A DNA stretch of 64,000 nt from an uncultured Sphaerochaeta sp. (GTDB lineage Bacteria; Spirochaetota; Spirochaetia; Sphaerochaetales; Sphaerochaetaceae): positions 61,233-125,232 of the forward strand of contig CAZJMG010000001.1 in the NCBI GenBank assembly GCA_964547185.1, in the 5' to 3' direction. The translations under genes and the position numbers were made by a program. The notes under the pieces were generated by a model that searched no databases, was not told the origin of the DNA, and was given only the letters and a program-made list of their open reading frames with translations. Shown one piece after another: positions 12,499 to 60,398 of the stretch; within the stretch, counting starts at the first letter, position 1, and each line of letters begins with the position of its first letter.

Positions 12499-12514
12499 TG
12501 GCACGCCTTTTGCA
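12499..12514 (+). promoter_or_regulatory. sigma-54 (-24/-12) promoter of pspA1
   Basis: TGGCACgccttTTGCA matches TGGCAC-N5-TTGC exactly, about 60 nt upstream of pspA1. Palindrome TTGGTA-N5-TACCAA at 12409-12425 is a candidate UAS. Confidence 0.75.
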
Positions 12515-12573
12515 TAGGTATATTCGTAACACAAATACTACAAACAACAGCCACAAAGTGGCGAAAGGAGACA

Positions 12574-13251
12574 ATGATGCAGATGTTCAAAAGATTCGCC
12601 GATATCTTCAACTCACACGTAAACAGCGCCTTGGATAAGATGGAAGATCCGGCAAAGATGATCAACTTGATGATCACCGAGCTTGAAGAAACCCAGACAA
12701 AGGCCCGTTCTTCGATGGCCGCAAGGAAAGCAGAACAGACAACCTTGCTGCGAGAGAAGTCAGAATATGAGAAGAGTGCCCTGCGTTGGGAAGATCGAGC
12801 AAAATTGGCAATCGAAAAAGGCAGAGAAGATCTTGCTCGTGAAGCACTTCTTGCAAAAAAGCAAGCAAATGACCAGATTTCAAGAGTTGAACAACAGCTG
12901 GAAAACCTCTCTTCAATTCTTGCTAGCCAGAGCAGCCAGTTGGCTCAGATTACCGACAAACTCAAAGAAGTCAAGGAGAAGCAGCAAATCTTGATCCAGA
13001 GAGCTTCCAGCGCCAAAGAGAAGAAGAAGGTTGCACAGACTTTGAAGAACAGTGAGAGTGCAGACCTGGCACGCAAGTTCAGTGAACTGGAGAGCAAGAT
13101 TGAACGAATGGAAGCTGATGCAGAGATGACAGCCTACAAGGGAACCACCTCAACAGCAGATGAGTTTGCAAAAATGGAAAACGACAGCGCTATTGAATCT
13201 GAATTGGAAAGTTTGAAAGCTGCAATGAGCAAGAAGAAGGAGCAGAAATAA
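12574..13251 (+). CDS. pspA: phage shock protein A (PspA/IM30 family), paralogue 1
   Basis: MMQMFKRFADIFNSHVNSALDKMEDPAKMINLMITELEE..., a coiled-coil protein. AAGGAG RBS at 12565-12570 favours ATG 12577 or 12583 over 12574. Confidence 0.9.
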   Translation: MMQMFKRFADIFNSHVNSALDKMEDPAKMINLMITELEETQTKARSSMAARKAEQTTLLREKSEYEKSALRWEDRAKLAIEKGREDLAREALLAKKQANDQISRVEQQLENLSSILASQSSQLAQITDKLKEVKEKQQILIQRASSAKEKKKVAQTLKNSESADLARKFSELESKIERMEADAEMTAYKGTTSTADEFAKMENDSAIESELESLKAAMSKKKEQK

Positions 13252-13457
13252 TGAGTTACTACAGCAGAGAAGATAATCGGACCCTCTACCGTGAGAGAAG
13301 AGGCATGATCTTGGGAGTCTTCCAAGGCTTAGCTACCTGGTCGGGCTTGCCGGTACTCCTTTTGAGGATAGTCGGTATCATCCTGCTGTTCTCCGTAGGG
13401 CTTACTCCAATCATAATCGCCTATCTCGCAACTGCACTGATGCTACCCTCACGATAG
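13251..13457 (+). CDS. pspC: PspC-domain membrane protein (minimal, 68 aa)
   Basis: LYRERRGMILGVFQGLATWSGLPVLLLRIVGIILLF is the PspC-domain signature. TAATG stop/start coupling to pspA1. AAGGAG RBS. Confidence 0.8.
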   Translation: MSYYSREDNRTLYRERRGMILGVFQGLATWSGLPVLLLRIVGIILLFSVGLTPIIIAYLATALMLPSR

Positions 13458-13500
13458 ACACTAAACCTCACTTCATGACATATAGTATATACGACTTCTT

Positions 13501-13529
13501 GAGCAGGACATCATTTGGGTGTCCTGCTC
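13501..13529. terminator. bidirectional stem-loop between pspC1 and pspF 3' ends
   Basis: GAGCAGGACA-tcatttggg-TGTCCTGCTC: 10-bp perfect stem, T-rich on the + side. Confidence 0.6.
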
Positions 13530-13539
13530 TTCTATTCAT

Positions 13540-14574
13540 CTATTCTTCTTGCAGCTTATCCTGGTATTTCCGATACAACCCCCGAAGTTGGTCATAGGTC
13601 AGGCTGAGCATTTTTGCCGCCTCTTTCTGATTTCCACCGCTCTCTTGGAGTGCTTGCTTGAGATAGGAAAGCTCCAGCTCGACTCTTGCCTGATCAAAAC
13701 TACCAAGATCCAGTTTCTCCTTTTTGACAACTGTGCAAGCAACTTCCTCTTGGATCGGATTGAAAGGATTCTTGAACGGGTCGAATTCCAAAAATTCCAG
13801 AACAGAGTGGTCGCTTCGATAGACAGCCCGTTCAATGACATTCTTCAGTTCTCTGACATTGCCCGGCCATTGATAACCAAGGAGCTGAGAGACCACCTCC
13901 TCGCTGAACGTCGGCATCTCTTTTCTTCCACATTCCAAGGCCATCTTTGAGGCAAAGTAGGATGCAAGCAATACGATATCCTCTCCACGCTCCCGCAAAG
14001 GAGGAAGAAACAAGACCTCAAAGGAGAGGCGATCCAAAAGATCCTCCTTGAACTTCCCTTCTTTGCATAGTGTCGGAAGATCGGCATTGGTCGCCCCGAT
14101 GATCCGTACATTTGATTCATGAGTTATTGATGAACCTACTCTCTCATAGGTTCCATACTCGACCACCCTGAGAATTTTCTCCTGGACTTCAAGAGGAATT
14201 AGCCCTATCTCATCAAGAAACAAGGTTCCTCCTTCTGCCTCTTCGAATCTCCCTTTGCGTGTCTTCTGGGCCCCGGTAAATGCACCTTGCTCATACCCAA
14301 ACAGCTCTGTTTCAATGAGCGAGGGTGGCAAGGCGGCACAGTTGACGGTTACCAGATTCTGTTGCCAGCGAGGAGAGAGAAAGTGCAATCTTCTTGCGGC
14401 GATCTCCTTTCCGCTTCCCCGCTCTCCTACCAACAGTACTGAACGGTTTACCGTTGCAGCACGACTGAGCTTGCTTTGAAAGTCGAGAAAGACTTCACTT
14501 TCGCCGAGTGGTTGTTGATTATATCCTCCCTGCAGGGCTTCCATCAGACACTCCTTGTTGGTAAAATTTGCCAT
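13540..14574 (-). CDS. pspF: sigma-54-dependent transcriptional activator PspF (no receiver domain)
   Basis: AAA+ EBP core: GERGSGKE Walker A, GAFTGA loop (YEQGAFTGAQ), GGTLFLDEI Walker B. C-terminal Fis-type HTH (EAAKMLSLTYDQLRGLYRKY). Lies between two pspA operons. Confidence 0.9.
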   Translation of the reverse strand: MANFTNKECLMEALQGGYNQQPLGESEVFLDFQSKLSRAATVNRSVLLVGERGSGKEIAARRLHFLSPRWQQNLVTVNCAALPPSLIETELFGYEQGAFTGAQKTRKGRFEEAEGGTLFLDEIGLIPLEVQEKILRVVEYGTYERVGSSITHESNVRIIGATNADLPTLCKEGKFKEDLLDRLSFEVLFLPPLRERGEDIVLLASYFASKMALECGRKEMPTFSEEVVSQLLGYQWPGNVRELKNVIERAVYRSDHSVLEFLEFDPFKNPFNPIQEEVACTVVKKEKLDLGSFDQARVELELSYLKQALQESGGNQKEAAKMLSLTYDQLRGLYRKYQDKLQEE

Positions 14575-14690
14575 TCTTGGTAGGTTTCACCAGCGCTAGG
14601 GTATCATAGCTGTACTCTTGATAAAAGAGGGAAGCCCGCAATCTGTGCTATTTTGGTGATTTACAAGTTTTTTTGTAAAAAAATAAGAGT

Positions 14691-14706
14691 TGGCACGAAT
14701 CATGCA
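14691..14706 (+). promoter_or_regulatory. sigma-54 (-24/-12) promoter of the pspA2 operon
   Basis: TGGCACgaatcATGCA (one deviation in the -12 box), about 50 nt upstream of pspA2. Palindrome TTTACAA-N6-TTGTAAA at 14660-14679 lies just upstream. Confidence 0.7.
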
Positions 14707-14755
14707 TCTAGATTTATACAAACACAGGTGGTACTACTACCTATAGGAGAGAAAT

Positions 14756-15412
14756 ATGGGAGTTTTTTCAAGATTCTTAGATATTGTCAATGCGAACATC
14801 AACTCGCTCTTGGACAAAGCAGAAGACCCAGAGAAGATGATCAAGCTGATGATGCAGGAGATGGAAGATACACTGATCGAGCTTAAAAGCTCCTGCGCAG
14901 CAAAGATGGCCAGCAAGGCTAAAACCGAACGGACCTACAAGGAAGCCCTCAGTGCTGTAGAGCGCTGGCAAAACAGGGCAGAACTTGCCATCAGTAAGGG
15001 TCGTGAGGACTTGGCTCGTGAGGCACTGCTTGAGAAAAAGCAGGCTAGTTCTTCACTCGATCAACTCGAGCAAGAACTTGCAACCTTTGACGAGGTCATC
15101 AAGACAGCAAAGAGCGAGATCAATCAGATTGAGGATAAACTTACCTCAGTGAAACAAAAGTACCAGATGATGGTCGAACGAGCCAAACGAGCCCGAGAAG
15201 AGCAGGCAGCCCAGGAAACATTGAGAAGGGCAAGCGAAGATTCCACGCTTCACCGCTTCAGCTCCATGGAAGAAAAAATCGACCGCATGAAAGCAAACAA
15301 TGAGATGAATCGCTACAGTTCATCCTCCCTTGACGACAAGTTCAGAGACTTGGAAGAGATGGATGATATTGATGCTGAAATTGCAGAGCTGCGCAAGCGC
15401 GCTGGCTTATAA
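14756..15412 (+). CDS. pspA: phage shock protein A, paralogue 2
   Basis: MGVFSRFLDIVNANINSLLDKAEDPEKMIKLMMQEMEDTLIELKSS closely follows the enterobacterial PspA N-terminus. GGAG RBS 6 nt upstream. Confidence 0.92.
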   Translation: MGVFSRFLDIVNANINSLLDKAEDPEKMIKLMMQEMEDTLIELKSSCAAKMASKAKTERTYKEALSAVERWQNRAELAISKGREDLAREALLEKKQASSSLDQLEQELATFDEVIKTAKSEINQIEDKLTSVKQKYQMMVERAKRAREEQAAQETLRRASEDSTLHRFSSMEEKIDRMKANNEMNRYSSSSLDDKFRDLEEMDDIDAEIAELRKRAGL

Positions 15413-26330: not shown

Positions 26331-27827
26331 ATGAAAAGACTGACTACTGTTCTTGTTGTATTGTTTATCATCGTTTTGCTTTCTGGGTGTGTAACTGTAA
26401 AGAAAGCAAATGAGATTTTTGATGATCGATTGGAAGCTCTCTATCCTGATGTCGATTTTGAAGAACTGAACAACAAGACCCTCAAGCTATCCGAAAAGCA
26501 GGTAGAAATCGAGAGTGCTGTAACAGCAGCAAAGGAAAGTTTAGATTCTGCCCTGGAAGAAGGTATTACCAAAATTGAAACCAAAGCTTCTGATACTGAA
26601 CAAACTATCACTTCTGTTTCAGAGCAAGCGCAACAATCTATTGTCTCTGTTTCGGAACAAGCCGAAAAAACCATTGGAGAGAAGACGCTGCAAGCTGAGA
26701 AAAGCCTACAGACAATTACCCTTGGTGCCACCGAAGAGCTAAACAAAACGCTTAGATCAGTGACACTACAGCTCGATACCACGGTTGCAGGTAGTGTATC
26801 CACTATTGAACAGAAGTCCGGTGCGAGTATAGCGGCTATCGATTCGGCTGCTTCTAGTGCACAGACCAAACTAATGTCCTCTGTATCGGGAAGTGTAACT
26901 ACAATCAATGCTGATGTCACAGAAGCCAAACGTCAAATGCAGACAGTAACATCTGGTAGCGTTTCAACCATCGAAAAGAAAGCTAACGAAAACATTTCGG
27001 CAATCGATTCAGCAACATCCAAGGCACAGCAGCAGATGCAGACGATAGTGTCAGGCAGCGTCTTGGCAATCGAAAAGAAGGCCAGTGAAAACATTTCAGC
27101 TATCAATGCTGCAAGCTCCAGTGCTCAACAGCAGATGCAGACGATTGCTTCCGGCGGCCTCTCGAATCTTGAAAAGAAAGCTGATGAGAGCCTGTCTGCC
27201 ATACATGCTGCACATACTGCCTCTTTAAAGAGCATCAACACACAAATGGAAGGAAGCCTGAGCCAGATTAAAACAGCTTCGCAGAATGTAATTGAAGCAC
27301 TTGATACGACAAAGCAAATTACCATGACTGAAATTACCGGCAACCTTGTAAATGCCAATAAAGAATATGAAACATTCATGAAGGCGGTACAAGCGGCATT
27401 CAAAGAAATTGATGGGATGAAGAAAAACACGGAAACATTCCTAAGCGGTCTTGAAGTGCAGTATAAAAACTTCTTGCTTGATCTTATCAACAACGAAGGG
27501 CAAGCCCTTTACGATGAGATAATTTCAGAAAAGCAGGATGCGATCGACGCTATGCATACATACCAAAAGGCAACAGAGAACTTTATGAACGGGTTGCAAG
27601 AACAATTTAAAAACCATATGGCTGAGCAAGTGCAAACGATCGAAGGCCTGAAAGCCCAAATGGAAAACGATCTTACAACGTACAGATCTTCTGTTGATAC
27701 CATGAGTGTTGGAACTCTCAACAAGATCAATCAAACAGCTGAAGACCTGAATGAGAAATTTACCTCTCTCGAAAAGCAATACGAATCCTTGGTGGTATTC
27801 CTACAAGGTCTGGCTAAGCTTCAATAA
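26331..27827 (+). CDS. repeat-rich, predicted alpha-helical lipoprotein of unknown function
   Basis: AAGGAG RBS. Signal peptide with lipobox (VLLSGC). Ser/Thr/Gln/Ala/Glu-rich. Internal 33-aa repeats and a C-terminal duplicated E(T/N)F(L/M).GL(E/Q).Q(Y/F)KN motif. Confidence 0.8.
   Translation: MKRLTTVLVVLFIIVLLSGCVTVKKANEIFDDRLEALYPDVDFEELNNKTLKLSEKQVEIESAVTAAKESLDSALEEGITKIETKASDTEQTITSVSEQAQQSIVSVSEQAEKTIGEKTLQAEKSLQTITLGATEELNKTLRSVTLQLDTTVAGSVSTIEQKSGASIAAIDSAASSAQTKLMSSVSGSVTTINADVTEAKRQMQTVTSGSVSTIEKKANENISAIDSATSKAQQQMQTIVSGSVLAIEKKASENISAINAASSSAQQQMQTIASGGLSNLEKKADESLSAIHAAHTASLKSINTQMEGSLSQIKTASQNVIEALDTTKQITMTEITGNLVNANKEYETFMKAVQAAFKEIDGMKKNTETFLSGLEVQYKNFLLDLINNEGQALYDEIISEKQDAIDAMHTYQKATENFMNGLQEQFKNHMAEQVQTIEGLKAQMENDLTTYRSSVDTMSVGTLNKINQTAEDLNEKFTSLEKQYESLVVFLQGLAKLQ
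26772..27233 (+). repeat. in-frame tandem 99-bp (33-aa) repeats inside the lipoprotein gene
   Basis: Units start at 26772, 26937, 27036 and 27135 (MQT(V/I).SGSV..IEKKA.ENISAI..A.S.AQQQ). A 22-aa partial unit lies at 26871-26936. Copies are diverged. Confidence 0.7.
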
Positions 27828-34775: not shown

Positions 34776-35861
34776 ATGCTAACGAAGGAAATTATCCAAC
34801 GCATTCCCAAAGTGGAATTACACGACCATCTTGACGGCGGACTCAGAATACAGACCATCTTGGAACTAGCAGAGGAATATGACGTTAAGCTTCCAAGCAA
34901 CGACCCTCAAGAATTGCACGATTGGTTCATCCGTGGGTGCAAACAAAAAAGCCTCAAACTATACCTTGAGCCTTTCTCTGTAACCACTAAAGTAATGCAA
35001 ACCCAAAAAGCCCTTAAGAGAGTAGCGTTCGAAGCTGTACAAGATTTGGCGAAAGAAAATGTCTGCTATGCCGAAATTAGGTTTGCCCCTATTCTCCATA
35101 TACAGGGAGGCCTCAGTCTTGAGCAGGTTGTACAGGCCGTACTCGATGGCCTTGACCAAGGAAAGCGCCATACAGGTATGCCTACCGGCTTGATTCTCTG
35201 TGCCATGCGCAACCAAAGCCCGGTTGTCAGCAAGACTATAGCAGAACTGGCTGTAGCGTTTGCAGACCGAGGAGTTGTTGGCTTTGACCTGGCAGGGGAT
35301 GAAATAGGCTATCCTCCCAAGAAACACCTTGATGCATTTCAATTTATCAGAAACAAGAACTTCAACATCACTATTCATGCTGGAGAAGCCTTCGGTGTTG
35401 AATCAATCTGGCAGGCAATCCAACTATGCGGGGCTCATCGAATCGGCCATGGCGTGCGCCTGGTGGAGGATATGGGTCTGCAGGGAAGCAGGATCGAGGA
35501 GATGGGATCTTTGGCTAATTTCATCCTTGACAGGCGCATCCCGATGGAGATGTGCCTGACCAGCAATGTGGGAACAGGAGCGGCCAAGGACTATGCAAGC
35601 CATCCCTTCCCGATTTTCTTCAGGAACAAGTTCAGGGTTTTCCTCTCAAGCGACAACCGTCTGATGAGTGACACAAACCTCACTAAGGAAATGGAATTGG
35701 CTGTTCAATATTACAATCTCAGTCTCAGGGATTTGGAGAAGATTACGATCAACGCGATGAAGAGTGCATTCATCCACCATGACCAGAAACTCTCCATCAT
35801 CTATGACGTTATCAAAAAGCAATACTCTGATATTCGTCAGCAATATGGGGTGCTGGACTAG
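34776..35861 (+). CDS. add: adenosine deaminase
   Basis: MLTKEIIQRIPKVELHDHLDGG (HxHLDG metal site), IHAGE, SSDNRLMS (SxDDP-like). Alternative ATG 34758. The ORF is open from 34653. Confidence 0.9.
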   Translation: MLTKEIIQRIPKVELHDHLDGGLRIQTILELAEEYDVKLPSNDPQELHDWFIRGCKQKSLKLYLEPFSVTTKVMQTQKALKRVAFEAVQDLAKENVCYAEIRFAPILHIQGGLSLEQVVQAVLDGLDQGKRHTGMPTGLILCAMRNQSPVVSKTIAELAVAFADRGVVGFDLAGDEIGYPPKKHLDAFQFIRNKNFNITIHAGEAFGVESIWQAIQLCGAHRIGHGVRLVEDMGLQGSRIEEMGSLANFILDRRIPMEMCLTSNVGTGAAKDYASHPFPIFFRNKFRVFLSSDNRLMSDTNLTKEMELAVQYYNLSLRDLEKITINAMKSAFIHHDQKLSIIYDVIKKQYSDIRQQYGVLD

Positions 35862-36496
35862 AGGGTGCGCTTGAACACCTCGATCGGATTGATTCTCATC
35901 CTGATCCTACAGTACAGATAGCCGAATACCAATCCGCTGAGATGGGTCAGGTGTGCTACATTTCCACCACGCCCCAAGACATGGCTGGACAGTTCGATAA
36001 TCGCGTACAGAATAACCAATATGGGAGCGCGTACAGGAATAATCCCGAATACAAAGATGACCGAGTATGGAAAGAAAACCGCAAACATCAACAGTACTCC
36101 GTAAATCGCTCCTGAGGCTCCTACGAGTATGACATTTGTACCGGCCAAATAATAACTTATAAAGCTGGCAAGGCCGGAAAAGAACCCTGTCAAGAGGTAG
36201 AAAAGCAGAAATTCCTTGCTTCCGATGCGCTTCTCCACCATGGCTCCGAATATGAGCAAGCTGAGCATGTTGAACAGCAGGTGATTAAAGCTTCCGTGCA
36301 CAAACATGTAGGTGAACAGCTGATAGACATAGCCACTGAGCACGAAGGAAGGGATCATGGCCAGATAAAATCTACTTCTCGGATATATATAAAAAGTAAG
36401 CGCGTAGATAAGAACATTGATAAGAATCAACTTGAAGGTATATCTTCTATAAACTGTATCCCGGAATCGCCGGTTCAATAAAGTACTCTTTTTCAT
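35858..36496 (-). CDS. rhomboid-family intramembrane serine protease
   Basis: HGSFNHLLFNMLSL, GASGAIYGVL (catalytic Ser), AHLTHLSGLVFG (catalytic His). Start is uncertain (ATG 36496, 36502 or 36550; ORF max 36571). Confidence 0.88.
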   Translation of the reverse strand: MKKSTLLNRRFRDTVYRRYTFKLILINVLIYALTFYIYPRSRFYLAMIPSFVLSGYVYQLFTYMFVHGSFNHLLFNMLSLLIFGAMVEKRIGSKEFLLFYLLTGFFSGLASFISYYLAGTNVILVGASGAIYGVLLMFAVFFPYSVIFVFGIIPVRAPILVILYAIIELSSHVLGRGGNVAHLTHLSGLVFGYLYCRIRMRINPIEVFKRTL

Positions 36497-36630
36497 ATGC
36501 ATACAGTATAAAGACAATGACGTATCGTCAATTGTGTAATTTTTGCGCATTTTTTTCAGGTGTGCAAACAATACACACTTCTGAATTGCAGAAATCCTTA
36601 AATATGCACTCTATTTGTAGGTTTTACTCT

Positions 36631-36646
36631 TGGCATGGTTATTGCA
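36631..36646 (+). promoter_or_regulatory. sigma-54 (-24/-12) promoter of sRNA candidate 1
   Basis: TGGCATggttaTTGCA in non-coding DNA. Upstream 10-mer AGGTGTGCAA at 36558-36567, within GTGTG-N9-CACAC. Confidence 0.7.
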
Positions 36647-36656
36647 TTGATATTAT

Positions 36657-36752
36657 CAGAACAGAGCAACATTTTTTTCATACTCCTCCTTTTTAATACC
36701 GACAGGGTGCCAAGAGATTTACCCCAATCAGCTTTTGGCACCCTCCTTTTTT
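36657..36752 (+). ncRNA. candidate sigma-54-dependent small RNA 1 (~96 nt)
   Basis: Predicted +1 block CAGAACAGAGCAACA, a U-run, unpaired CUCCUCC (36683-36689), a 12-bp terminator stem 36705-36716/36732-36743 with a C-rich loop, and T6 at 36747-36752. Contains no ATG. Confidence 0.55.
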
Positions 36753-36872
36753 GTCTAGAGGTGTGCAATTTTTCATATCTGTAACTTTTTTTCACACCCC
36801 CTTATCAACAGATTATGTACCAGACTTGTTTTTAAGTGATATTTTTATACTTTTAGTATTGTTTTATAGAGT

Positions 36873-36888
36873 TGGCATGCATGTTGCA
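36873..36888 (+). promoter_or_regulatory. sigma-54 (-24/-12) promoter of sRNA candidate 2
   Basis: TGGCATgcatgTTGCA. Upstream 10-mer AGGTGTGCAA at 36759-36768. Confidence 0.7.
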
Positions 36889-36898
36889 TTATAATAGT

Positions 36899-37003
36899 CA
36901 GAACAGAGCAACAGTTTTTTTCAAACCTCCTTAAAGTGTGATTTCTTTGATGCCAGCGGTACTCTCTCCCCACCCCACAATACCGCTGGCATCATCTTTT
37001 TTT
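36899..37003 (+). ncRNA. candidate sigma-54-dependent small RNA 2 (~105 nt), paralogue of candidate 1
   Basis: Same 15-nt block CAGAACAGAGCAACA at the same distance from the -12 box, a U-run, CCUCC (36926-36930), a 13-bp perfect stem 36949-36961/36981-36993 with loop CUCCCCACCCCAC, and T7 at 36997-37003. Confidence 0.55.
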
Positions 37004-37046
37004 GTAAACACTTCCGACTATCGCCAATGTTTGCTATAGTCAAGCT

Positions 37047-37652
37047 ATGGCAACAAGCAGAAGAGACCGTGCAGATTCTTACACCAAACGTGCACAAAAA
37101 GAAGGCTACCCCGCCCGTTCCGTCTATAAACTGGAAGAGCTACAACAACATTTTTCCTTAATCAGAAGTGGAGATACAGTTCTTGATGTAGGAGCAGCTC
37201 CAGGATCATGGACACTCTATACCCACAACAAACTCATAAAGGGGAGAGGAAAGATAGTCGCAGTAGATCTGAATCCTTTGAACCTCAACCCAATTCCTCA
37301 TACGGTAACAGCCTTTATAGGGGATGCTTTTTCAAAAGAGATAAGAGCACACCTCATCGAGCAGGGGCCTTATGACGCTATTATCAGTGATGCAGCTCCC
37401 ATGACCATGGGCAACCGAAGTGTGGACACCGCACGGAGCGAAAACTTAGCAGAACAAGTCATCTATCTGGCAAAAGAGCATCTAAAAACTCATGGGAACA
37501 TGGTAGTAAAAATTTTCCAAGGGGGTGGACAAGTAGAACTCCTAAAGCTTATGCGTACAATTTTTACAAAAGTAAAACCCTACAAACCAAAGGCTTGTAG
37601 GGATGACTCGTTTGAAATCTATTTGGTCGGTCTGGATAAAAAAGAAAGCTGA
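37047..37652 (+). CDS. rlmE: 23S rRNA (uridine2552-2'-O)-methyltransferase RlmE/FtsJ
   Basis: YTKRAQKEGYPARSVYKLEEL, VLDVGAAPGSW, SDAAP, VVKIFQG: canonical FtsJ motifs. Confidence 0.92.
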   Translation: MATSRRDRADSYTKRAQKEGYPARSVYKLEELQQHFSLIRSGDTVLDVGAAPGSWTLYTHNKLIKGRGKIVAVDLNPLNLNPIPHTVTAFIGDAFSKEIRAHLIEQGPYDAIISDAAPMTMGNRSVDTARSENLAEQVIYLAKEHLKTHGNMVVKIFQGGGQVELLKLMRTIFTKVKPYKPKACRDDSFEIYLVGLDKKES

Positions 37653-54215: not shown

Positions 54216-55208
54216 TTACTTATCTTTACCGATAGAAGCAAGATAGTCAGCCTGGAACTTCGTTCCATACGCCTTGAACGTTGCACTATCCATGAAGTCG
54301 GGGATCAACTTCTGTCTTTCGATGTAGCCGGTCTGCCATGCAGAGGTGGCGTTGATCTTCGCAAGCATATCGCTGTAGAAAGCAACAGCTGCAGGACTCA
54401 TCGAACCAGGAGCAACGACAGATCTCCAGTTGGGAACCTCGACGTTGTTGTACCCAAGTTCACTCAAAGTAGGCGCGCCACTGAGATTGCCGGGGAAGCG
54501 ACTGGTTGAAAGAGCCAAAATAGGAGTAATCCTTCCAGCTTCAACATACTGAGCAGCTGCTGCGGGCTTGGAGATCAAGAGGTCAAAGTGACCGCCAAGG
54601 ATTGCAGTAATAGCACCACTGGTTGCATCGTGAGCAATGTAGGAAAGCTGGTCCTGGGTAACCCCAAGTTCCCTGATCAAAGCAGCGTGACAGGCAATGT
54701 CATCACCCTTGGAACCGCCGAGAACCATCCTCTCACCTCTGCCCAATGCAGCAAGAACTTCTTCTACGGTCTTGTACTTGGAGTACTCACCTACAAAAAT
54801 CAAGTGCTTGTCGACTGCCATATGAGCAACAGGCTGGAAGTTCTGAAAACGGTTGTTGGTGTTCATGACCATCGGCATCAAGTCGCCGCTGTTGAAGGTA
54901 AGCAGGGTATGGTCAGCCTGTACACCGGCTCTCATATTGGAAACATAGAGTCTGCCCACTTCGCCGGCACCATCGGTCTTGTACTGGATTACAAAGTTCT
55001 GACCATTTGACAGTTTCTCTGCAGTTGCGATGTCAGTAAGGGTACGAGTAAAGATATCAGATCCACCACCGGGAGAACTGGTAACAACCCATTCAATGTT
55101 CCTTGAAGGAGCAAAGGTCTTCGGACCTTCTGACTCAGCCTGACCGGCAGCATACACGGACATGCTCAAAAGCAGAGCAACACTCAGAAGTAGAACTAAT
55201 TTTTTCAT
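54216..55208 (-). CDS. tctC: tripartite tricarboxylate transporter substrate-binding protein (TctC/Bug family)
   Basis: Signal peptide MKKLVLLLSVALLLSMSVYA. 330 aa Bug-family length. Adjacent to tctA and tctB. Confidence 0.9.
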   Translation of the reverse strand: MKKLVLLLSVALLLSMSVYAAGQAESEGPKTFAPSRNIEWVVTSSPGGGSDIFTRTLTDIATAEKLSNGQNFVIQYKTDGAGEVGRLYVSNMRAGVQADHTLLTFNSGDLMPMVMNTNNRFQNFQPVAHMAVDKHLIFVGEYSKYKTVEEVLAALGRGERMVLGGSKGDDIACHAALIRELGVTQDQLSYIAHDATSGAITAILGGHFDLLISKPAAAAQYVEAGRITPILALSTSRFPGNLSGAPTLSELGYNNVEVPNWRSVVAPGSMSPAAVAFYSDMLAKINATSAWQTGYIERQKLIPDFMDSATFKAYGTKFQADYLASIGKDK

Positions 55209-55292
55209 GTCTAAATCTCCTCTTTTTCTAACGGGACCAAGTCCCGGTTTTCACGTATTTCAAAACCCTTTCCTAAGGATTTTCCGATTACA

Positions 55293-56798
55293 CTATTTTC
55301 TTAAACCGGTCTTTTTCAAAACAAACTTAACCACCGGGGTAAGGATGATAAGAAAGAGAACAGCCAAGAAGAAGGCAGAGATAGGTTTCATAAAGAAGAT
55401 ATCCAAGCTTCCATTGCTGATGATGAAGGCCTTTCTCATGTTTGACTCCAACAGGGGAGCAAGGACAAAAGCCAAGAGCATCGGGGCAACACCATATCCA
55501 TTACGGTCAAGAATGTACCCGGCAACTCCTGAGAGGAACATCACGATGACCCCATACATGGAATAGGATGTACTGTATCCTCCTACGACACATACTACGG
55601 TGATAATCGGGATCAATATTCGTACCGGGACGGTGAGAATCTTGATCAAGAAAGGGATGATTCCCAAAGAAATAATCAACGTCAGCAAGTTGGCGAGGAA
55701 AAGGCTGGCTATCAAGCCCCAGGCGAAATCAGGATTGGTGGAGAAGAGAAGAGGTCCAGGATTAAGGCCCCACATCATCAGACCACCAAGAAGGACTGCA
55801 CCAGTACCTGAGCCGGGTATACCCAAGGCAAGCAAGGGAGCAAAAGAACCTGCAGCCGCTGCGTTGTTCGCAGCTTCACAAGCAGCAATACCTTCCACAG
55901 CACCACTGCCTAGGGGCTCTTCATTCTTGAATGCTTTCTGCATTGCATAGCCGAGGAACGCTCCGGTAGTAGCTCCGGCTCCGGGAAGAACGCCGACGAA
56001 GGTTCCCATGAATCCGCTTCTGACAGCCGGGGGAATAAGGCGTTTCACATCCCGAAGCGTCAGCATAGAGCCCCTGATGGTCAACTTCTGGTTGAGATTC
56101 GCCTCAACCTTCTTATTTCGCTCACCCATCAGCTTCAACACTTGGCTGAATCCAACAGCACCAATAACGAAGGGTGTAAAGGGAATACCTCCAAGCAGAT
56201 AGATATTTCCAAAGTCATAGCGAGGACTTCCGGTAAGGGTATCCATCCCGATGGAGGCAATAAGGATGCCCAACAACGTCAAGACAACACCTTTTGTAGG
56301 ATTCTCACCTACCAGCCATCCAATTGAGGTCATGGCAACCAGAAGCAAGGCTGTCATTTCGGCCGGACCGAACTTCAACCCGATGTCGGCGAGCAACGGA
56401 CCCATGAAGGTAAGTATAAACATCCCGATCAAGCCACCGATGAATGAGGATAGATTAGAAGTAAACAGGGCTTGACCTGGACGATTTCGTTTCGTAGCCA
56501 TCGGATAGCCGTCCAATGCTGTCATGACAGCCGGTGAATCACCGGGGATGTTCAACAGAATGGCACTGAATGAGCCACCGTACATGTTCGAGTAGTACAA
56601 GGCTCCAAGCATAATGATGGCAGTGGTGGGATTGAATCTGTAGGTAAGGGGCAGCAGCAAGGCTACTCCGGCGAGAGACCCAATACCAGGCATGGCTCCG
56701 ACGACCAGTCCGAGCACTGCTCCAAGCATGGTTACCAATACATTTTCCAAAGTAAGGACTACTGAGAAGCCCATGAATAATAATTGCAAGTTTTCCAT
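55293..56798 (-). CDS. tctA: tripartite tricarboxylate transporter large permease TctA
   Basis: 501 aa polytopic. GAVLGLVVGAMPGIG and GVLPGAGATTGAFLGY motifs. Confidence 0.92.
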   Translation of the reverse strand: MENLQLLFMGFSVVLTLENVLVTMLGAVLGLVVGAMPGIGSLAGVALLLPLTYRFNPTTAIIMLGALYYSNMYGGSFSAILLNIPGDSPAVMTALDGYPMATKRNRPGQALFTSNLSSFIGGLIGMFILTFMGPLLADIGLKFGPAEMTALLLVAMTSIGWLVGENPTKGVVLTLLGILIASIGMDTLTGSPRYDFGNIYLLGGIPFTPFVIGAVGFSQVLKLMGERNKKVEANLNQKLTIRGSMLTLRDVKRLIPPAVRSGFMGTFVGVLPGAGATTGAFLGYAMQKAFKNEEPLGSGAVEGIAACEAANNAAAAGSFAPLLALGIPGSGTGAVLLGGLMMWGLNPGPLLFSTNPDFAWGLIASLFLANLLTLIISLGIIPFLIKILTVPVRILIPIITVVCVVGGYSTSYSMYGVIVMFLSGVAGYILDRNGYGVAPMLLAFVLAPLLESNMRKAFIISNGSLDIFFMKPISAFFLAVLFLIILTPVVKFVLKKTGLRK

Positions 56799-56808
56799 AT
56801 TCAGCTCC

Positions 56809-57267
56809 TTAGTAGGCGATCAGGTTGTAGATGAATCCCTTCGGAAAGGGAACCCCAAGCCAGAATACAAAAGCACCGAGAACGATGGCTGCAATGATGG
56901 CAAATCCAATCAAGGTGGTTTTCCAGCTGAACTTCTCATACCACTTCAACCAAAGAATGACAAATATTGCCAAGGAGGGGAGCATGCCGATTATAAACGT
57001 AGCAAGCATGATAGCCACCACTCCTAGGGCAGGATACCAGTTTTCAATGGGGTAGCTTGTTTCAGTCTCTTTTCTGCCTCCCAAAAAAGCAATTAGGCTG
57101 ATTACCAACAAGACACTACCGATGATAGTGGGAAAGAAACCAGGAAGGGGGCCTCTGAGTTCATGCCAGAATCCATACTGGGTGACTCCGAGAATGATGA
57201 AGGCCAAAGCAATCAGGGCTGTGACGATAGGTATCACCATTTTACTCGTAATCTTTTTTATCTGCAT
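56809..57267 (-). CDS. tctB: tripartite tricarboxylate transporter small permease TctB
   Basis: 152 aa, 4 TM, immediately upstream of tctA. Confidence 0.8.
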   Translation of the reverse strand: MQIKKITSKMVIPIVTALIALAFIILGVTQYGFWHELRGPLPGFFPTIIGSVLLVISLIAFLGGRKETETSYPIENWYPALGVVAIMLATFIIGMLPSLAIFVILWLKWYEKFSWKTTLIGFAIIAAIVLGAFVFWLGVPFPKGFIYNLIAY

Positions 57268-57280
57268 ACTGTATATCTCC

Positions 57281-58288
57281 TTAGGAGCGAGAGCGCAGAT
57301 GGTTTGCCATACGGCAGGCCATTTTTACTGCATTCTCAAAAGCACTGGTCTTTACAATTCCTTTACCGGCTATATCATAGGCGGTACCATGAGCACAGGT
57401 AACTATCGGGGCAGGAAGGCCTCCTGCTATGGTGATACCCTCATCAAATCCTCTCAGCTTAAGAGCTATCTGACCTTGGTCATGGTACATCGTCACCACT
57501 CCATCAAACTCCCCACGGAATGCCTTGATAAAGGTAATGTCGCTTGGATAGGGGCCTGATGCATCGATTCCCATCTTCCTTGCTTCTGCAATTGCAGGTT
57601 CTATGACATCAATTTCCTCACGGCCGCACAGTCCATGTTCACCGGCGTGGGGATTGAGGGCGGCAAGTGCAAGTCTTGGTTTGGTGATACCGCTGTTTTT
57701 CAAAGAAGTATTGGCCAGACGGACTGCTCGCATGATAGTCTGGACGCTCAGATTCTTGCTTACTTCACTGATAGGGATATGGCTGGTTGTGCGAGTAGTC
57801 CAAAGGTCACCCAACACATTGATCTCTCCAAAGGGCTCGGTGTGATTGAACAACTGAGCCAAGTAGTGATGTTCACTTTCCAGTGCACAACCGGCCTCTT
57901 TCATGCCTGCTTTATTGAAGGGGCCAAAACAGAAGCCTTCAATCTTCTTGTCCTTATAAAGCTCAACACCAAGCTTCATAGCATGCAAATTTGCCTTGCC
58001 TGCTTCGATGGTCAACGTTCCATAGACGACGGTATTGGGATCTTGGTCTTTTTGGTCAAGTACAGGGATACCGACAGTCCAGTCGGCCTGATCGACCTCA
58101 TCAATTATCTGTAGGGGGACTGATGCACCGAGGACAGAGAATGCTCGTTCGAGCAACCTGGCATCACCGATGATCACTGGCTTGCAATATTGATTAAAAA
58201 AGTTGCTGATTGCTAGCTTGGCAATAATTTCAGGTCCGACTCCGGCTCCATCACCGATCAAGATTCCCAATACAGGTGTATCATTCAT
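57281..58288 (-). CDS. PdxA-family NAD-dependent dehydrogenase (4-hydroxythreonine-4-phosphate / 4-phospho-D-threonate dehydrogenase-like)
   Basis: 335 aa. LGILIGDGAGVGPEII, ALNPHAGEHG, MYHDQG, CAHGTAYDIAGKG are PdxA motifs. Confidence 0.9.
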   Translation of the reverse strand: MNDTPVLGILIGDGAGVGPEIIAKLAISNFFNQYCKPVIIGDARLLERAFSVLGASVPLQIIDEVDQADWTVGIPVLDQKDQDPNTVVYGTLTIEAGKANLHAMKLGVELYKDKKIEGFCFGPFNKAGMKEAGCALESEHHYLAQLFNHTEPFGEINVLGDLWTTRTTSHIPISEVSKNLSVQTIMRAVRLANTSLKNSGITKPRLALAALNPHAGEHGLCGREEIDVIEPAIAEARKMGIDASGPYPSDITFIKAFRGEFDGVVTMYHDQGQIALKLRGFDEGITIAGGLPAPIVTCAHGTAYDIAGKGIVKTSAFENAVKMACRMANHLRSRS

Positions 58289-58348
58289 AGAAGTGCTCCC
58301 TCTTTAAAATACAGTGAATACGAACTACATCACTCGTATCTTAAGTAA

Positions 58349-58364
58349 AGCAACTAGCGTGCCA
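58349..58364 (-). promoter_or_regulatory. sigma-54 (-24/-12) promoter of the pdxA-like/tctBAC operon
   Basis: The minus strand reads TGGCACgctagTTGCT, about 60 nt upstream of ATG 58288, directly downstream of the EBP gene. Confidence 0.72.
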
Positions 58365-58375
58365 ACTTCCTTATA

Positions 58376-58414
58376 TTGTATACAATTTGTTTGTTTTTGG
58401 TTTTTTGTATACAG
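58376..58414 (-). promoter_or_regulatory. pair of TGTATACA boxes just upstream of the sigma-54 promoter
   Basis: TTGTATACAA (58376-58385) and TTGTATACAG (58405-58414). The latter 10-mer is identical to the box at the tkt2 promoter (49618-49627, opposite strand). Confidence 0.45.
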
Positions 58415-58497
58415 TTTATCTCTTGGTAATTCAATCAAATATGAAAAAAATATAAGAAATTTCTAAAAATTTTGATAATACGTGTCTAAGAATAGGG

Positions 58498-58545
58498 GTG
58501 TTTCATAAAACGTTTCATGTTTCAATTGAAACATTTCTGAAACAT
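58498..58545. promoter_or_regulatory. nested TGTTTCA/TGAAACA inverted repeats (candidate EBP UAS and/or EBP-gene terminator)
   Basis: 18-bp perfect palindrome ATGTTTCAATTGAAACAT (58517-58534), flanked by TGTTTCA (58499-58505) and TGAAACA (58538-58544), about 160 nt upstream of the -24 element. Confidence 0.45.
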
Positions 58546-60398
58546 TATTTTTCAAAACCTTGAAATTTCCTCCAAAGCGTAGTCCGACTTATTCCAACCT
58601 TGGTTGCAAAAGCCTCTTTAGTAAGCCCGCTGGCAAGATAGTTTTCATACAGTTGTCTATCAGTATACTTCATTGTATGCACCTTATGCCCTTCTTCTAG
58701 CCTATCTTCCAGATATAAACTGGTGGATCCGATATCCAACTGCTCAATTTCCCTGACAGAAACCTCATTCGATGTATGCAAGATAGCCAACCGTTCAGCT
58801 GCGTTGCGAAGCTCCCTGATATTTCCAGGCCAGTAGAACTTTTTGAGCATCTCAATTGCTTCATCTGAGACAGTAATGGGATGCACATTGTGCCTACTGC
58901 AATACAACTGAACAAAATGTCTGAAAAGTATGCCAATATCCTCTTTTCTATCACGAAGAGGAACCAGCATGAGACTCAGCAAACTGATACGATAAAATAA
59001 ATCGAGCCGAAAGCTCCCTTCCTTTACTTTCTGTACTATGCTGTTGTTCGCCGCACTGATTACCCGAACATCTACAGGGATGACCATGTCAGCACCTATG
59101 CGTCGTATCTCTCTCTCCTGCAGAACCCGAAGCAGCTTGGCTTGTACCACAATCGGCATTTCCGCGATCTCGTCAAGAAAAATTGTTCCCTTGTGGGCCA
59201 ACTCAAACAAACCAGCCTTTCCTCCCTTTCGGGCACCGGTGAAAGCGCCTTCTACATAGCCAAAGAGCTCACTCTCCAACAGTTGCTCAGGAAGAGCTGC
59301 ACAGTTTACTGCAACAAAACTCTCTGTTGCCCGATGGGAAGCATTGTGAATGCTTTGGGCAAACAACTCCTTGCCCGTTCCGGTTTCCCCCAGCAGCAGC
59401 ACAGCCCCGGGAACCTCGCTGAACCTCTTGGCTTTCTCGAGCAGGGCTTGCATATATGCATTTTGGGTCACAATATCGGAAAACTGATATTTGGCGACCA
59501 AACCTTTTCGGCTGAGCTCCCTGCGAATCTTGTATTCTGTCTTCTGGATTGTTTCTGCATTTTGAAAGGTAAAAATAAACCCTGAGGTCTCCTGATCCAT
59601 GCTGATCGGTTGCTGCGTCACAAGAAACCGCTGGCCATGGATACTCACCAACTCTTCTTTCTGTGTACCGGCGCGATATACTTGCTCAAGAGGGGCTCCT
59701 ACCAGATCACTTCTTCCAAACAAGTGCTCTGCCTGATGATTTGCTGCAATAATAACGTCATTGCTGTTTATCGCAAGCAAAGCATAGGAAGCATTGTTGA
59801 GCAGGGTTCCGAGGAGGTTTCCTCTTGTCTGGGCACGATCAAGGGCGCGGGCTGCCGCTACAGCTTCAGCAACGGCATGGACTACTGCCTGATAGCCGGT
59901 TTTTACGTGCACATGCAACAGCCCTTGTTCTTCACAAAGGCGGCACATGGTCAGGCCACCCACCATGACAGTGCACCCTGCATTTGTCAGTTGTTTCAAG
60001 CCCATCCTTACGTCTTCCTGATCGGTTACCTGAAAAATGGAAACAGGACACTCAACGAGTTTCGCAATGGTTTGACTGTCACACAACTGCTCATTCGTCA
60101 CGATTCCAATATGCGCGTTCGGCTTAAGTTGTTTCGCTTGGGCAAGGGCTTCTAGAAGGTCAGCGCTAAAGAGCGCAATGGGGACAACATGCACAGAACT
60201 CTTGTACTGCGATATTGCATGGGCTGTGATGCCTCTTGCTACTATGATGTCAGCATCCAGTGGTTCAATGACTTTTGGGTCGCTTCCAAAGATATGGGTG
60301 GTTTCAATGGTAATATTGTCAAGCACATAGCTTTGTACAATCTGTTCAAAGGTTTCCTGCAATTCGATATAGGGAACCACTATCAGTATCTTTATCAC
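58545..60398 (-). CDS. sigma-54-dependent transcriptional activator with PrpR-type N-terminal sensor domain and PAS domain
   Basis: 617 aa. PrpR_N-like MIKILIVVPYIELQ...IIVARGITAHAI. AAA+ GETGTGKE, GAFTGA (VEGAFTGARK), GTIFLDEI. C-terminal HTH (VGISRTTLWRK). Confidence 0.92.
   Translation of the reverse strand: MIKILIVVPYIELQETFEQIVQSYVLDNITIETTHIFGSDPKVIEPLDADIIVARGITAHAISQYKSSVHVVPIALFSADLLEALAQAKQLKPNAHIGIVTNEQLCDSQTIAKLVECPVSIFQVTDQEDVRMGLKQLTNAGCTVMVGGLTMCRLCEEQGLLHVHVKTGYQAVVHAVAEAVAAARALDRAQTRGNLLGTLLNNASYALLAINSNDVIIAANHQAEHLFGRSDLVGAPLEQVYRAGTQKEELVSIHGQRFLVTQQPISMDQETSGFIFTFQNAETIQKTEYKIRRELSRKGLVAKYQFSDIVTQNAYMQALLEKAKRFSEVPGAVLLLGETGTGKELFAQSIHNASHRATESFVAVNCAALPEQLLESELFGYVEGAFTGARKGGKAGLFELAHKGTIFLDEIAEMPIVVQAKLLRVLQEREIRRIGADMVIPVDVRVISAANNSIVQKVKEGSFRLDLFYRISLLSLMLVPLRDRKEDIGILFRHFVQLYCSRHNVHPITVSDEAIEMLKKFYWPGNIRELRNAAERLAILHTSNEVSVREIEQLDIGSTSLYLEDRLEEGHKVHTMKYTDRQLYENYLASGLTKEAFATKVGISRTTLWRKFQGFEK

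Follow-up and report, generated by a model that had tools for sequence, protein, structure and literature searches.

The spacer between the rhomboid gene and rlmE of an uncultured Sphaerochaeta sp. contains two paralogous predicted small RNA (sRNA) genes at 36657-36752 (+) and 36899-37003 (+). As far as computation can show, they belong to an undescribed sRNA gene family conserved across Sphaerochaetaceae, whose members would each possess their own sigma-54 promoter, putative activator sites and terminator. All positions refer to the window, i.e. the whole stretch of 64,000 nucleotides that was analysed. Taking all observations together, these genes probably encode sigma-54-driven paralogous sRNAs that act in trans, preventing initiation by pairing with ribosome-binding sites.

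Anatomy of the two modules

A direct repeat of 49 nt (82% identity, 242-nt period) is common to both modules. Their products, delimited by reading the sequence, by repeat analysis and by folding, are predicted to measure about 96 nt (sRNA 1, "CUCCUCC type") and about 105 nt (sRNA 2). Both start with the identical 15-nt block CAGAACAGAGCAACA (36657-36671 and 36899-36913), which a preliminary description had placed at the predicted +1 and which begins in each module 11 nt past the GC of the -12 element. In sRNA 1 the block is followed on the plus strand by U7 (36672-36678), CAU (36679-36681), CUCCUCC (36683-36689), a terminator stem (36704-36716 and 36732-36744, 12 of 13 positions paired) with the 15-nt loop AUUUACCCCAAUCAG, and T6 (36747-36752). 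The corresponding elements of sRNA 2, on the same strand, are U7 (36915-36921), CAA (36922-36924), ACCUCCUUA (36925-36933, with CCUCC at 36926-36930), GUGUGA (36936-36941), a stem of 14 perfect pairs (36948-36961 and 36981-36994) enclosing the conserved C-rich 19-nt loop CUCUCUCCCCACCCCACAA (36962-36980), and T7 (36997-37003). The C-rich motifs CUCCUCC and CCUCC lie exactly where they had been reported. The alignment of relatives reveals sRNA 1 to be nearly invariant.

A covariance model built from the transcribed sequence of relatives only matched sRNA 1 at 36660-36751 (50.4 bits) and sRNA 2 at 36902-37002 (114.5 bits), the E values for the two modules being ~1e-20 and 2.5e-8. No further copy was detected by this model in the 64-kb window, which bears out the earlier view of two paralogous modules. 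Neither strand of the modules contains a conserved ORF.

Distribution of the family

This covariance model, R1, gave 147 + 45 matches, corresponding to about 190 copies in about 120 Sphaerochaetaceae loci. Most copies reside in the rhomboid-rlmE spacer, where one to four of them are arranged in tandem. A second conserved locus has the order apt(-)/sRNA/GtrA-like(+) and was found 14 times; in several genomes copies occur on two contigs. Named carriers include S. pleomorpha Grapes (four tandem copies), S. halotolerans, Bullifex porci, Pleomorphochaeta and Ca. Ornithospirochaeta, and copies are plentiful in metagenomes from gut, rumen and digesters. The promoter-terminator architecture proposed for the two modules recurs in the relatives: the -24/-12 boxes and the transcribed parts are invariant and the palindromes described below are kept, while the surrounding spacers diverge. 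Model R1 found no match in five non-spirochaete loci that matched our scan pattern, and pattern matches labelled Planctomycetales, Deltaproteobacteria, Ignavibacteria and Acidobacteriota were rejected as members because none scores with the model.

Sigma-54 promoters and upstream palindromes

The predicted sigma-54 promoter of sRNA 1 is TGGCATggttaTTGCA (36631-36646, +), with TGGCAC-N5-TTGCA at the orthologous positions, and that of sRNA 2, recognised by motif match and by comparison with relatives, is TGGCATgcatgTTGCA (36873-36888, +). These near-consensus elements, given in the preliminary description as TGGCATGGTTATTGCA and TGGCATGCATGTTGCA, have the canonical GG-to-GC distance of 12 nt. 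Four exact matches to TGGCAYN5TTGCW were present in the window against 0.35 expected, a number reached by no shuffle. Most loci were retrieved with a pattern demanding the promoter, AGAGCAA and CCTCCTT, so that the conservation of these three elements in the pattern-fetched set is partly by construction. Two unbiased subsets answer this ascertainment bias. Seven syntenic loci were fetched by the RlmE protein alone, which does not presuppose a promoter, and all 16 model matches in them are preceded, at a distance of 10-19 nt, by GG-N10-GC agreeing with the consensus in no fewer than 9 of 11 positions; among copies outside the scan pattern, GG-N10-GC was found at the right distance in 19 of 22. 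Across copies AGAGCAA follows the -12 C at a distance of 9 to 22 nt, with modes at 12-17.

Nearly all consensus sigma-54 promoters in about 1 Mb of Sphaerochaetaceae loci belong to this sRNA family. The window additionally encodes two enhancer-binding proteins (EBPs, 13540-14574 and 58545-60005), one pspF-like and one PrpR-like, each beside consensus -24/-12 promoters of protein-coding operons, indicating that sigma-54 works in this genome. The comparative evidence supports sigma-54 control of both predicted sRNA genes, whose transcription would require RpoN and an EBP; sigma-54 RNA polymerase would read each gene independently.

Candidate activator sites were found upstream of both promoters. 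The distal palindrome of module 1, TGTGTAATTTTTGCGCA (36533-36549), agrees with TGTG-N9-CACA in 7 of 8 positions, and its proximal palindrome, TGTGCAAACAATACACA (36561-36577), in all 8. The distal block is conserved in relatives, and its distance of 28 bp from the proximal site is the modal spacing of the family. Module 2 has the palindrome TGTAACTTTTTTTCACA (36780-36796, 7 of 8 matches), whose centre precedes the predicted +1 by about 111 nt and which is conserved in relatives (alignment columns 313-330). The 10-mer AGGTGTGCAA, proposed earlier as an EBP site preceding the -24 boxes by 73 and 114 nt, does occur at the positions given (36558-36567 and 36759-36768) and was right in kind, but the putative site is the strongly conserved 17-bp palindrome, of which the 10-mer is only a half-site. 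Its first copy forms the left half of the proximal palindrome of module 1; the second is a half-site with a degenerate right half. At one mismatch, the 10-mer alone was not above chance in the window.

TGTG-N9-CACA precedes 150 of 163 modules compared to 9 of 163 after shuffling, with a sharp spacing optimum, and was found at 15 of the 16 model matches in the loci fetched by RlmE. Usually there are one or two copies, whose centres peak at about -115 and -88 and which are 28-29 bp apart when neighbouring. A putative EBP would activate transcription by binding one or two of these palindromes, centred about 88 and about 115 nt upstream. As stated before, no EBP gene is adjacent to the modules. 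The two EBP genes of the window adjoin their own sigma-54 operons and were excluded as linked activators on account of these operons and their different upstream repeats; in the family as a whole, no more than 2 of 115 loci have a GAFTGA-type EBP motif at a distance of up to 8 kb. The conserved palindrome is a handle for fishing out the activator and hence a route to the inducing signal.

Scanning metagenomes for the palindrome together with the promoter yielded 65 matches, mostly from unrelated bacteria (e.g. a PTS EIIB operon and repeated marine or gut sequences). Eight of the 65 were classed as family-like, and there were at least three more diverged copies (L153, L175, L179). Similar palindromes precede sigma-54 promoters elsewhere, and the scan is uninformative on the Sphaerochaeta regulon.

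Terminators and RNA folding

Transcription of each sRNA would stop at its intrinsic terminator. For the first one, the earlier reading of a 12-bp stem with T6 ending at 36752 holds; for the second, the perfect stem and the T7 ending at 37003 were correctly recognised, but the stem comprises 14 pairs instead of 13. The folding energy is -21.2 kcal/mol for the first hairpin (z = -3.7) and -28.2 kcal/mol for the second (z = -5.7). A simple terminator scan missed both hairpins because their loops exceed the 8-nt limit of the scan. A hairpin of -10 kcal/mol or lower followed by a T-rich tail is present in 162 of 166 distinct copies compared to 7 of 60 shuffles. In the covariation analysis of the relatives, which the preliminary description had suggested, compensatory changes were found in all 10 terminator stem pairs, and 96.3% of the stem cells are paired, against 36-47% in slid controls. 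Many copies, including sRNA 2, carry a second conserved C-rich motif, CUCUCCCCACCCC, in the unusually large terminator loop.

The 5' domain has a mean fold energy of -3.4 kcal/mol and folds no better than controls. Its CCUCC motif is mostly unpaired, in line with the earlier claim: in the minimum-energy fold, 4.25 of its 5 bases are free on average across the family. A stem-loop that would present CCUCC (UCAUAC...GUGUGA) forms in a subset of copies only; with 72 of 121 compared to 71% of shuffled sequences it is neither more frequent nor more stable than in the controls, and it was discarded.

The 5' domain and its predicted targets

The first 40-45 nt are unstructured and highly conserved, following the scheme ACAGAGCAACA(G)-U6-7-CA(U/A)-(A)CCUCCUU. 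In front of CCUCC, 72 copies have the triplet CAU, 84 have CAA and 5 have CAC. Read antiparallel, this domain is the complement of what would be a translation initiation region, consisting of the Shine-Dalgarno (SD) sequence AAGGAGG(U), an AUG or UUG start and A-rich Lys codons. ACCUCCUU also matches the 3' tail of 16S rRNA as commonly given. The most conserved block is ACAGAGCAAC at the extreme 5' end. It is kept even in copies devoid of CCUCC (L021:5042, L044:479), and its conservation is not explained by the anti-Shine-Dalgarno (anti-SD) idea.

Once the activator is switched on, the sRNAs would pair in trans with ribosome-binding sites, whereby initiation would be blocked. The pairing segment would consist of the anti-SD, the anti-start triplet and the U-run, and in many copies also of the C-rich terminator loop. 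Since the anti-start triplet lies 0-4 nt from CCUCC and the SD-start distance in real mRNAs is 5-9 nt, simultaneous pairing of both would require a bulge in the mRNA. Preferred mRNAs would be those in which Met-Lys-Lys is followed by hydrophobic codons, i.e. mRNAs of exported proteins, lipoproteins and transporter binding proteins. The presence of several sRNA copies would raise the dosage.

This choice of targets is suggested by duplex energies. Pairing of the consensus 5' domain is 4.7 kcal/mol more favourable for initiation regions of ORFs beginning with Met-Lys (n = 95) than for the others (n = 790), and the preference is absent when the domain is shuffled with CCUCC left intact. Within the window, the best-scoring initiation regions are those of genes for a TctC-like binding protein (54216-55208) and a lipoprotein (26331-27827), both only about 2.7 sd from the mean. 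The patatin-like neighbour was rejected as a target, as its complementarity is inconsistent across orthologues (-18.7 to -30.9 kcal/mol). The window-wide duplex scan, the initiation-region scans and the patatin-like check yielded a class preference only and no specific conserved target.

A further-reaching interpretation, which we put forward tentatively and with clearly less confidence than the pairing itself, is that the sRNAs act as a sigma-54/EBP brake that reads the generic 5' signature of exported-protein mRNAs (SD, start, Lys-Lys and Leu-rich codons) and not a gene-specific sequence. The part of the RNA that does the reading would be a copy of the anti-SD tail of the ribosome itself. 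If true, this would be the spirochaete counterpart of the sigmaE-, CiaRH- and LisRK-dependent envelope sRNAs and a post-transcriptional arm of sigma-54 over the cell exterior in Sphaerochaetaceae.

Alternatively, the modules might encode real sigma-54-dependent sRNAs that mainly bind and titrate a protein or sponge another RNA instead of pairing with mRNAs. Candidates for titration would be an Hfq- or S1-like binder of U- or CU-rich RNA or a factor recognising the 16S anti-SD. The copy of the presumed 16S tail in ACCUCCUU would fit titration or sponging. The invariant ACAGAGCAAC block and the U7 run, which have no demonstrated mRNA partner, would fit this reading as well. GGA/ANGGA motifs of the CsrA/RsmA type are absent, however, and the order of U-run, CA(U/A) and CCUCC is the one predicted for an antisense to an initiation region, with Met-Lys initiation regions being measurably preferred over shuffled controls. 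Multicopy genes with repeated, conserved CU-rich motifs in single strands or loops are also typical of protein-titrating RNAs, a point also raised for LhrC (PMC4132741); yet the closest analogues, the csRNAs (PMC3091779) and LhrC itself (PMC4132741), act by base-pairing. On balance we consider titration or sponging unlikely, and pairing with ribosome-binding sites remains the preferred explanation.

Relation of the modules to rlmE

The last module is invariably on the strand of rlmE, 40-170 nt ahead of this gene. The modules could be cis-acting leaders or conditional promoters which drive or attenuate the methyltransferase gene rlmE when sigma-54 transcripts run past leaky terminators. The T-tract of the last module is indeed interrupted in several species (e.g. 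CTTCTCTTTGCC), so that some read-through into rlmE is plausible there; in the window, however, the terminator proximal to rlmE is the perfect 14-bp stem followed by T7. It speaks against a leader that the units, one to four in tandem, all come with a promoter and a terminator of their own, and that what is conserved is the 5' domain of the RNA and not a structure sensing anything about rlmE. Furthermore, the same RNA is found at the unrelated apt/GtrA-like locus and hence is not confined to the region upstream of rlmE, and in every aligned relative rlmE has retained a -10-like TATAGT box of its own, 7 nt ahead of the ATG. The second locus and this box indicate that the modules are independent genes, and a leader function is in our opinion very improbable.

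It is scarcely credible that the functional product is a small ORF on the minus strand (MKKTVAL...) whose AAGGAGG mirrors CCUCCUU: the reverse complement does read AAGGAGG-(1-3 nt)-ATG/TTG-AAA-AAA-ACT-GTT-GCT-CTG, but we rejected this ORF on spacing, frame and length, as SD and start are only 1-3 nt apart in most copies and a start within 12 nt is lacking in 32 of 166, the frame shifts with the length of the U-run (MKKTVAL, MKKLLLC, MKNCCSV), the length varies from 1 to 57 aa (median 14) with extension into the variable promoter spacer, and promoter, palindrome and terminator are all oriented along the plus strand.

Comparison with known sRNA families

Neither the window nor any of 12 diverse related loci matched an Rfam 15 family at the gathering score. 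This comparison reaches Qrr, GlmY/GlmZ, CrcZ, RsaE, LhrC, csRNA and Yfr1 as far as Rfam holds them. With E values up to 10, region 36400-37100 matched only tfoR (16.7 bits, 70 needed) and ctRNA_pGA1 (13.7 bits, 45 needed), both alignments covering the terminator only. The literature search returned neither a paper on this RNA nor a report of a sigma-54-dependent sRNA in spirochaetes, in line with the earlier statement that the pair is not a named family. Provided that the predictions are true, this would be, as far as the literature search shows, the first sigma-54-dependent sRNA family described in Spirochaetota.

The promoter arrangement resembles that of Qrr1-5 of Vibrio, GlmY/GlmZ, CrcZ/CrcY, NrsZ and Pxr, in which a -24/-12 promoter with upstream activator sites likewise gives rise to a short terminator-ended RNA. 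Several paralogues per genome, sometimes in tandem, are a shared feature as well, and so would be the action in trans. In contrast to these RNAs, the Sphaerochaetaceae sRNAs are without homology to any Rfam model; in place of the stem-loop arrangement of Qrr they have a presumed seed that mimics the anti-SD and sits at an unstructured 5' end, and they come from a different phylum. To our knowledge, TGTG-N9-CACA is not the site of LuxO, GlrR or CbrB.

The predicted mode of action resembles that of the csRNAs of Streptococcus (ccnA-E), which also comprise several highly similar paralogues of 60-150 nt per genome, belong to the regulon of one signal-responsive activator (predicted here) and are matched by our RNAs in the predicted blocking of initiation regions. 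In csRNAs an unpaired region holds the anti-SD and an anti-start, CAU in most of them and anti-GUG or anti-UUG in the rest (PMC3091779); the Sphaerochaetaceae copies have CAU, CAA or CAC before CCUCC in their unpaired region. The csRNAs are controlled by the response regulator CiaR at sigma-70-type promoters and have a 5' stem-loop, whereas the RNAs described here, from Spirochaetota, combine a predicted sigma-54 promoter and an enhancer palindrome with an unstructured 5' end and the invariant ACAGAGCAAC. There is no homology in sequence or structure, and no csRNA model matched in Rfam at E values up to 10.

LhrC1-5 of Listeria monocytogenes are similar in occurring as a tandem cluster plus a separate locus and in having redundant CU-rich motifs, located both in a single-stranded stretch and in the loop of the terminator. 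These motifs of the multicopy LhrC RNAs bind the SD regions of envelope-protein mRNAs, and induction proceeds via one dedicated signalling system (PMC4132741). No homology exists between the two families; LhrC is under control of the LisRK two-component system as opposed to the predicted sigma-54/EBP control, and its motif is UCCC compared to CCUCCUU and CUCUCCCCACCCC in Sphaerochaetaceae.

RsaE/RoxS-type RNAs of Firmicutes, too, have several C-rich motifs, placed in unpaired stretches and in loops, that of the terminator among them. They differ in that RsaE/RoxS is encoded by a single-copy gene under redox- or NO-responsive regulators, and they lack homology to our family, whose motif extends to the full ACCUCCUU of the presumed 16S tail. 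Pairing of such C-rich motifs with G-rich SD sequences is regarded as a hallmark of low-GC bacteria (PMC4132741).

Putative activator sites, promoter, RNA and terminator together make up a complete testable unit, which is conserved in the cultured S. pleomorpha, S. halotolerans and Bullifex porci, and the near-invariant 5' domain provides a defined seed for target mapping. The family suggests convergence, in that independent multicopy anti-SD/anti-start RNAs, documented earlier in Firmicutes, would here be wired to a different transcription machinery.

Putative sigma-54-driven small RNA genes between rhomboid and rlmE

The spacer of 547 nt between the rhomboid gene (minus strand) and rlmE (37047-37652, plus strand) contains two modules, sRNA 1 (36657-36752) and sRNA 2 (36899-37003), which are very probably sigma-54-driven small RNA genes. 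The rhomboid ORF is listed at 35858-36571; judged by the gene calls of relatives, its true start is likely near 36499. The elements assigned to the modules in the preliminary description were all found in place on the plus strand, including both hairpins with their T-tracts, except that the second stem comprises 14 perfect pairs and not 13.

The promoters at 36631 and 36873 are 242 nt apart and represent two of the four exact TGGCAYN5TTGCW matches in the window (0.35 expected). Each leads, after 11 nt, into the same 15-mer CAGAACAGAGCAACA, then into a U7 run, a CCUCC-bearing stretch and a strong hairpin with T-tract (-21.2 kcal/mol, z = -3.7, and -28.2 kcal/mol, z = -5.7, respectively). Because the terminator loops are large (15 nt in module 1, 19 nt in module 2), a simple terminator scan missed both hairpins.

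Conservation and distribution

RlmE, 81% identical to the protein of S. pleomorpha Grapes, and its neighbours assign the window to a Sphaerochaeta-like spirochaete; their top-scoring named matches belong to Sphaerochaeta or Sphaerochaetaceae. All seven syntenic loci gathered via the RlmE protein alone have a rhomboid-rlmE spacer organised like that of the window, and S. pleomorpha carries four tandem copies. In a four-species alignment the -24/-12 boxes and transcribed regions are almost invariant while the spacers drift, and the terminator stems show compensatory changes between species (for example GAUGCC/GGCAUC to GGUGCC/GGCACC).

A scan for promoter, AGAGCAA and CCTCCTT in one genome per species yielded at least 119 stretches; of those listed, almost every one bears the label Sphaerochaeta, Sphaerochaetaceae or 'Spirochaetales'. 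A covariance model based solely on transcribed sequence detected at least 192 copies, spread over about 120 loci. In the 64-kb window sRNA 2 scored 114.5 bits and sRNA 1 50.4 bits; the model found no further copy there and matched none of the five non-spirochaete loci fitting the scan pattern. Carriers include S. halotolerans, Sphaerochaeta sp. PS, Bullifex porci, Pleomorphochaeta and Ca. Ornithospirochaeta. The RNA adjoins rlmE in at least 73 loci; in at least 14 loci a single copy occupies another conserved position, flanked by apt and a GtrA-like gene, and some MAGs have copies on two contigs.

A hairpin of -10 kcal/mol or below (median about -19) followed by at least 5 T in 8 nt was present in 162 of 166 distinct modules, compared to 7 of 60 shuffles. 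In the model-based alignment 96.3% of the stem cells were paired (36-47% in slid controls), with compensatory changes at all 10 stem pairs. The predicted RNAs measure 65-122 nt (median 90). This is a real, robustly conserved family of predicted small RNAs. Rfam 15 holds no family matching the window or 12 diverse loci, in line with the earlier remark that the pair was not recognised as a named family, and full-text literature searches yielded nothing on sigma-54-dependent or anti-Shine-Dalgarno small RNAs in Sphaerochaeta or other spirochaetes. No description of the family exists within the libraries searched; elements of this kind are well known.

One Sphaerochaeta clade has an insertion between the two RNA genes, a 320-aa ORF with no assigned function (contig L015:2681-3643; also L031, L033, L035, L060, L103, L116, L121), which leaves them about 1.4 kb apart. 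Six contigs of a single MAG project ('H07xxx-L1_cleanbin'; L024, L038, L063, L094, L124, L128) carry canonical copies under the labels Segatella, Bacteroidaceae, Phocaeicola, Coriobacteriaceae and Selenomonadaceae. These labels are probably wrong; all six except L063 show the apt/GtrA-like context of gut Sphaerochaetaceae. Two contigs labelled Ignavibacteria (L070:4528; L086, minus strand, 6043) have in common a sigma-54 promoter with a hairpin and ACCUCCUUCCUCC downstream. Neither gives a covariance-model match, and they may represent either a separate sigma-54/anti-SD RNA of another phylum or a chance resemblance. The rhomboid-rlmE spacer of one relative (L021:4688-4790) contains a third consensus sigma-54 promoter; the unrelated sequence behind it has a hairpin and a stretch of CUCUCUUGUUCCUCC and may be a different sigma-54-driven small RNA.

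Promoters and upstream palindromes

A GG-N10-GC promoter with at least 9 of 11 consensus positions lies 10-19 nt upstream of all 16 model matches in loci gathered without a promoter criterion, and likewise of 19 of the 22 copies in pattern-derived loci not themselves fitting the scan pattern. The genome clearly makes use of sigma-54: two activators adjoin -24/-12 promoters. The pspF-like one without receiver domain (13540-14574, minus) is located between two PspA/IM30 genes (12574-13251 and 14756-15412), each preceded by a promoter (12499; 14691, one mismatch); the psp-like module spans 12499-15412. Within 54216-60005 (minus), the PAS-containing PrpR-like activator (58545-60005) lies upstream of the promoter at 58349-58364, from which genes for a pdxA-like product, TctB, TctA and a TctC-like binding protein are driven. 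GTTTCA...TGAAAC repeats between this activator and its operon are likely its own sites. Neither activator stands out as the cognate one, since the RNA genes have upstream repeats unlike those of either system.

TGTG-N9-CACA (at least 7 of 8 positions) occurs within 220 nt upstream of 150 of 163 modules, compared to 9 of 163 shuffled sequences. Other spacings gave 3-37 modules; only N11 departed from this, as it picks up the same motif one base farther out. The palindrome centres cluster around -88 and -115 from the predicted start, neighbouring sites being 28-29 bp apart; in the window they lie at 36533-36549, 36561-36577 and 36780-36796. AGGTGTGCAA, the putative enhancer site proposed earlier, is the left half-site of the palindrome. 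TTTTTTTCACACCCCCTTA (36786-36804) overlaps the right half of the module-2 palindrome and shows 89% identity to the U-run/CAAACCUCCUUA segment of sRNA 2 (36915-36933), which may be chance or a trace of duplication history. A very similar palindrome, TGTGTAAAATTTACACA, is found 63 nt upstream of a -24/-12 promoter serving a PTS EIIB gene in unrelated metagenome contigs, probably Firmicutes (L151:4988-5083, L164:4370-4465), indicating that other sigma-54 activators use this type and placement, too.

Predicted mode of action

The family consensus reads (N0-5)ACAGAGCAAC-AG-U6-7-CA(U/A)(A)-CCUCC-U2-5, often AGUGUGA, then the terminator. Folding leaves the 5' domain essentially without structure and CCUCC unpaired; a hairpin presenting CCUCC was rejected, occurring in a subset of copies only and without statistical support. 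About 45% of the copies, sRNA 2 among them, have a conserved CUCUCCCCACCCC in the large terminator loop. Copies of the sRNA 1 type exhibit CUCCUCC in place of this arrangement and a shorter C-rich loop. ACCUCCUU matches the 3' tail of 16S rRNA as known in general, the host's own rRNA lying outside the window.

Read antiparallel, the U-run, CA(U/A/C) and CCUCC are the complement of a Shine-Dalgarno sequence, then AUG/UUG/GUG, then AAA AAA. Among the listed copies the triplet ahead of CCUCC is CAU in 72, CAA in 84, CAC in 5 and CAG in none. The best-supported reading, which we favour somewhat over doubt, is that these multicopy RNAs would act in trans by pairing with translation-initiation regions. 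With initiation regions of ORFs starting Met-Lys (n=95) the consensus 5' domain reaches -19.8 kcal/mol, against -15.1 for those of the remaining ORFs (n=790), an advantage of 4.7 kcal/mol; controls shuffled with CCUCC kept showed no such difference (-14.4 vs -14.1). The two best initiation regions in the window are those of the TctC-like binding protein and an LSGC-lipobox lipoprotein (z about -2.7), and the complementarity of a patatin-like neighbour was inconsistent across orthologues. We consider these pairing data suggestive only; that mRNAs of exported proteins form the target class is a tentative idea of rather low probability. As the anti-start triplet lies only 0-4 nt from CCUCC, any real target requires a bulge.

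The 498-aa predicted lipoprotein (MKRLTTVLVVLFIIVLLSGC...) encoded at 26331-27827, whose initiation region ranks in the top two predicted pairing partners for either RNA, has weak apolipoprotein-like repeats and its gene lies in a low-GC stretch (40% vs about 47%).

Streptococcal csRNAs, a single regulon, combine an unpaired anti-SD with anti-AUG/GUG/UUG (PMC3091779). LhrC1-5 of Listeria respond to envelope stress and comprise one tandem cluster and a copy located apart from it; their CU-rich motifs lie in the terminator loop as well as in a single-stranded stretch (PMC4132741). Qrr, GlmY/Z and CrcZ/Y are parallels in having several paralogues controlled by sigma-54 and an activator. The family offers a complete, testable regulatory architecture.

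The initiation-region reading leaves the invariant 5' ACAGAGCAAC block, kept even in copies without CCUCC, without explanation. That the RNAs instead act by protein titration seems improbable. Against an rlmE leader stand the tandem units with terminators of their own, the second locus at apt/GtrA-like and rlmE's own conserved TATAGT box. A minus-strand peptide was rejected, with 1-3 nt from SD to start, frame shifts tracking U-run length and ORFs of 1-57 aa.

The -10-like TATAGT ahead of rlmE (37035-37049) is conserved and ends 7 nt before the ATG with no Shine-Dalgarno between, and a conserved CTTCCGA lies about 17 nt upstream. This block, kept in all four aligned species, suggests that rlmE has its own promoter and an mRNA with little or no leader.
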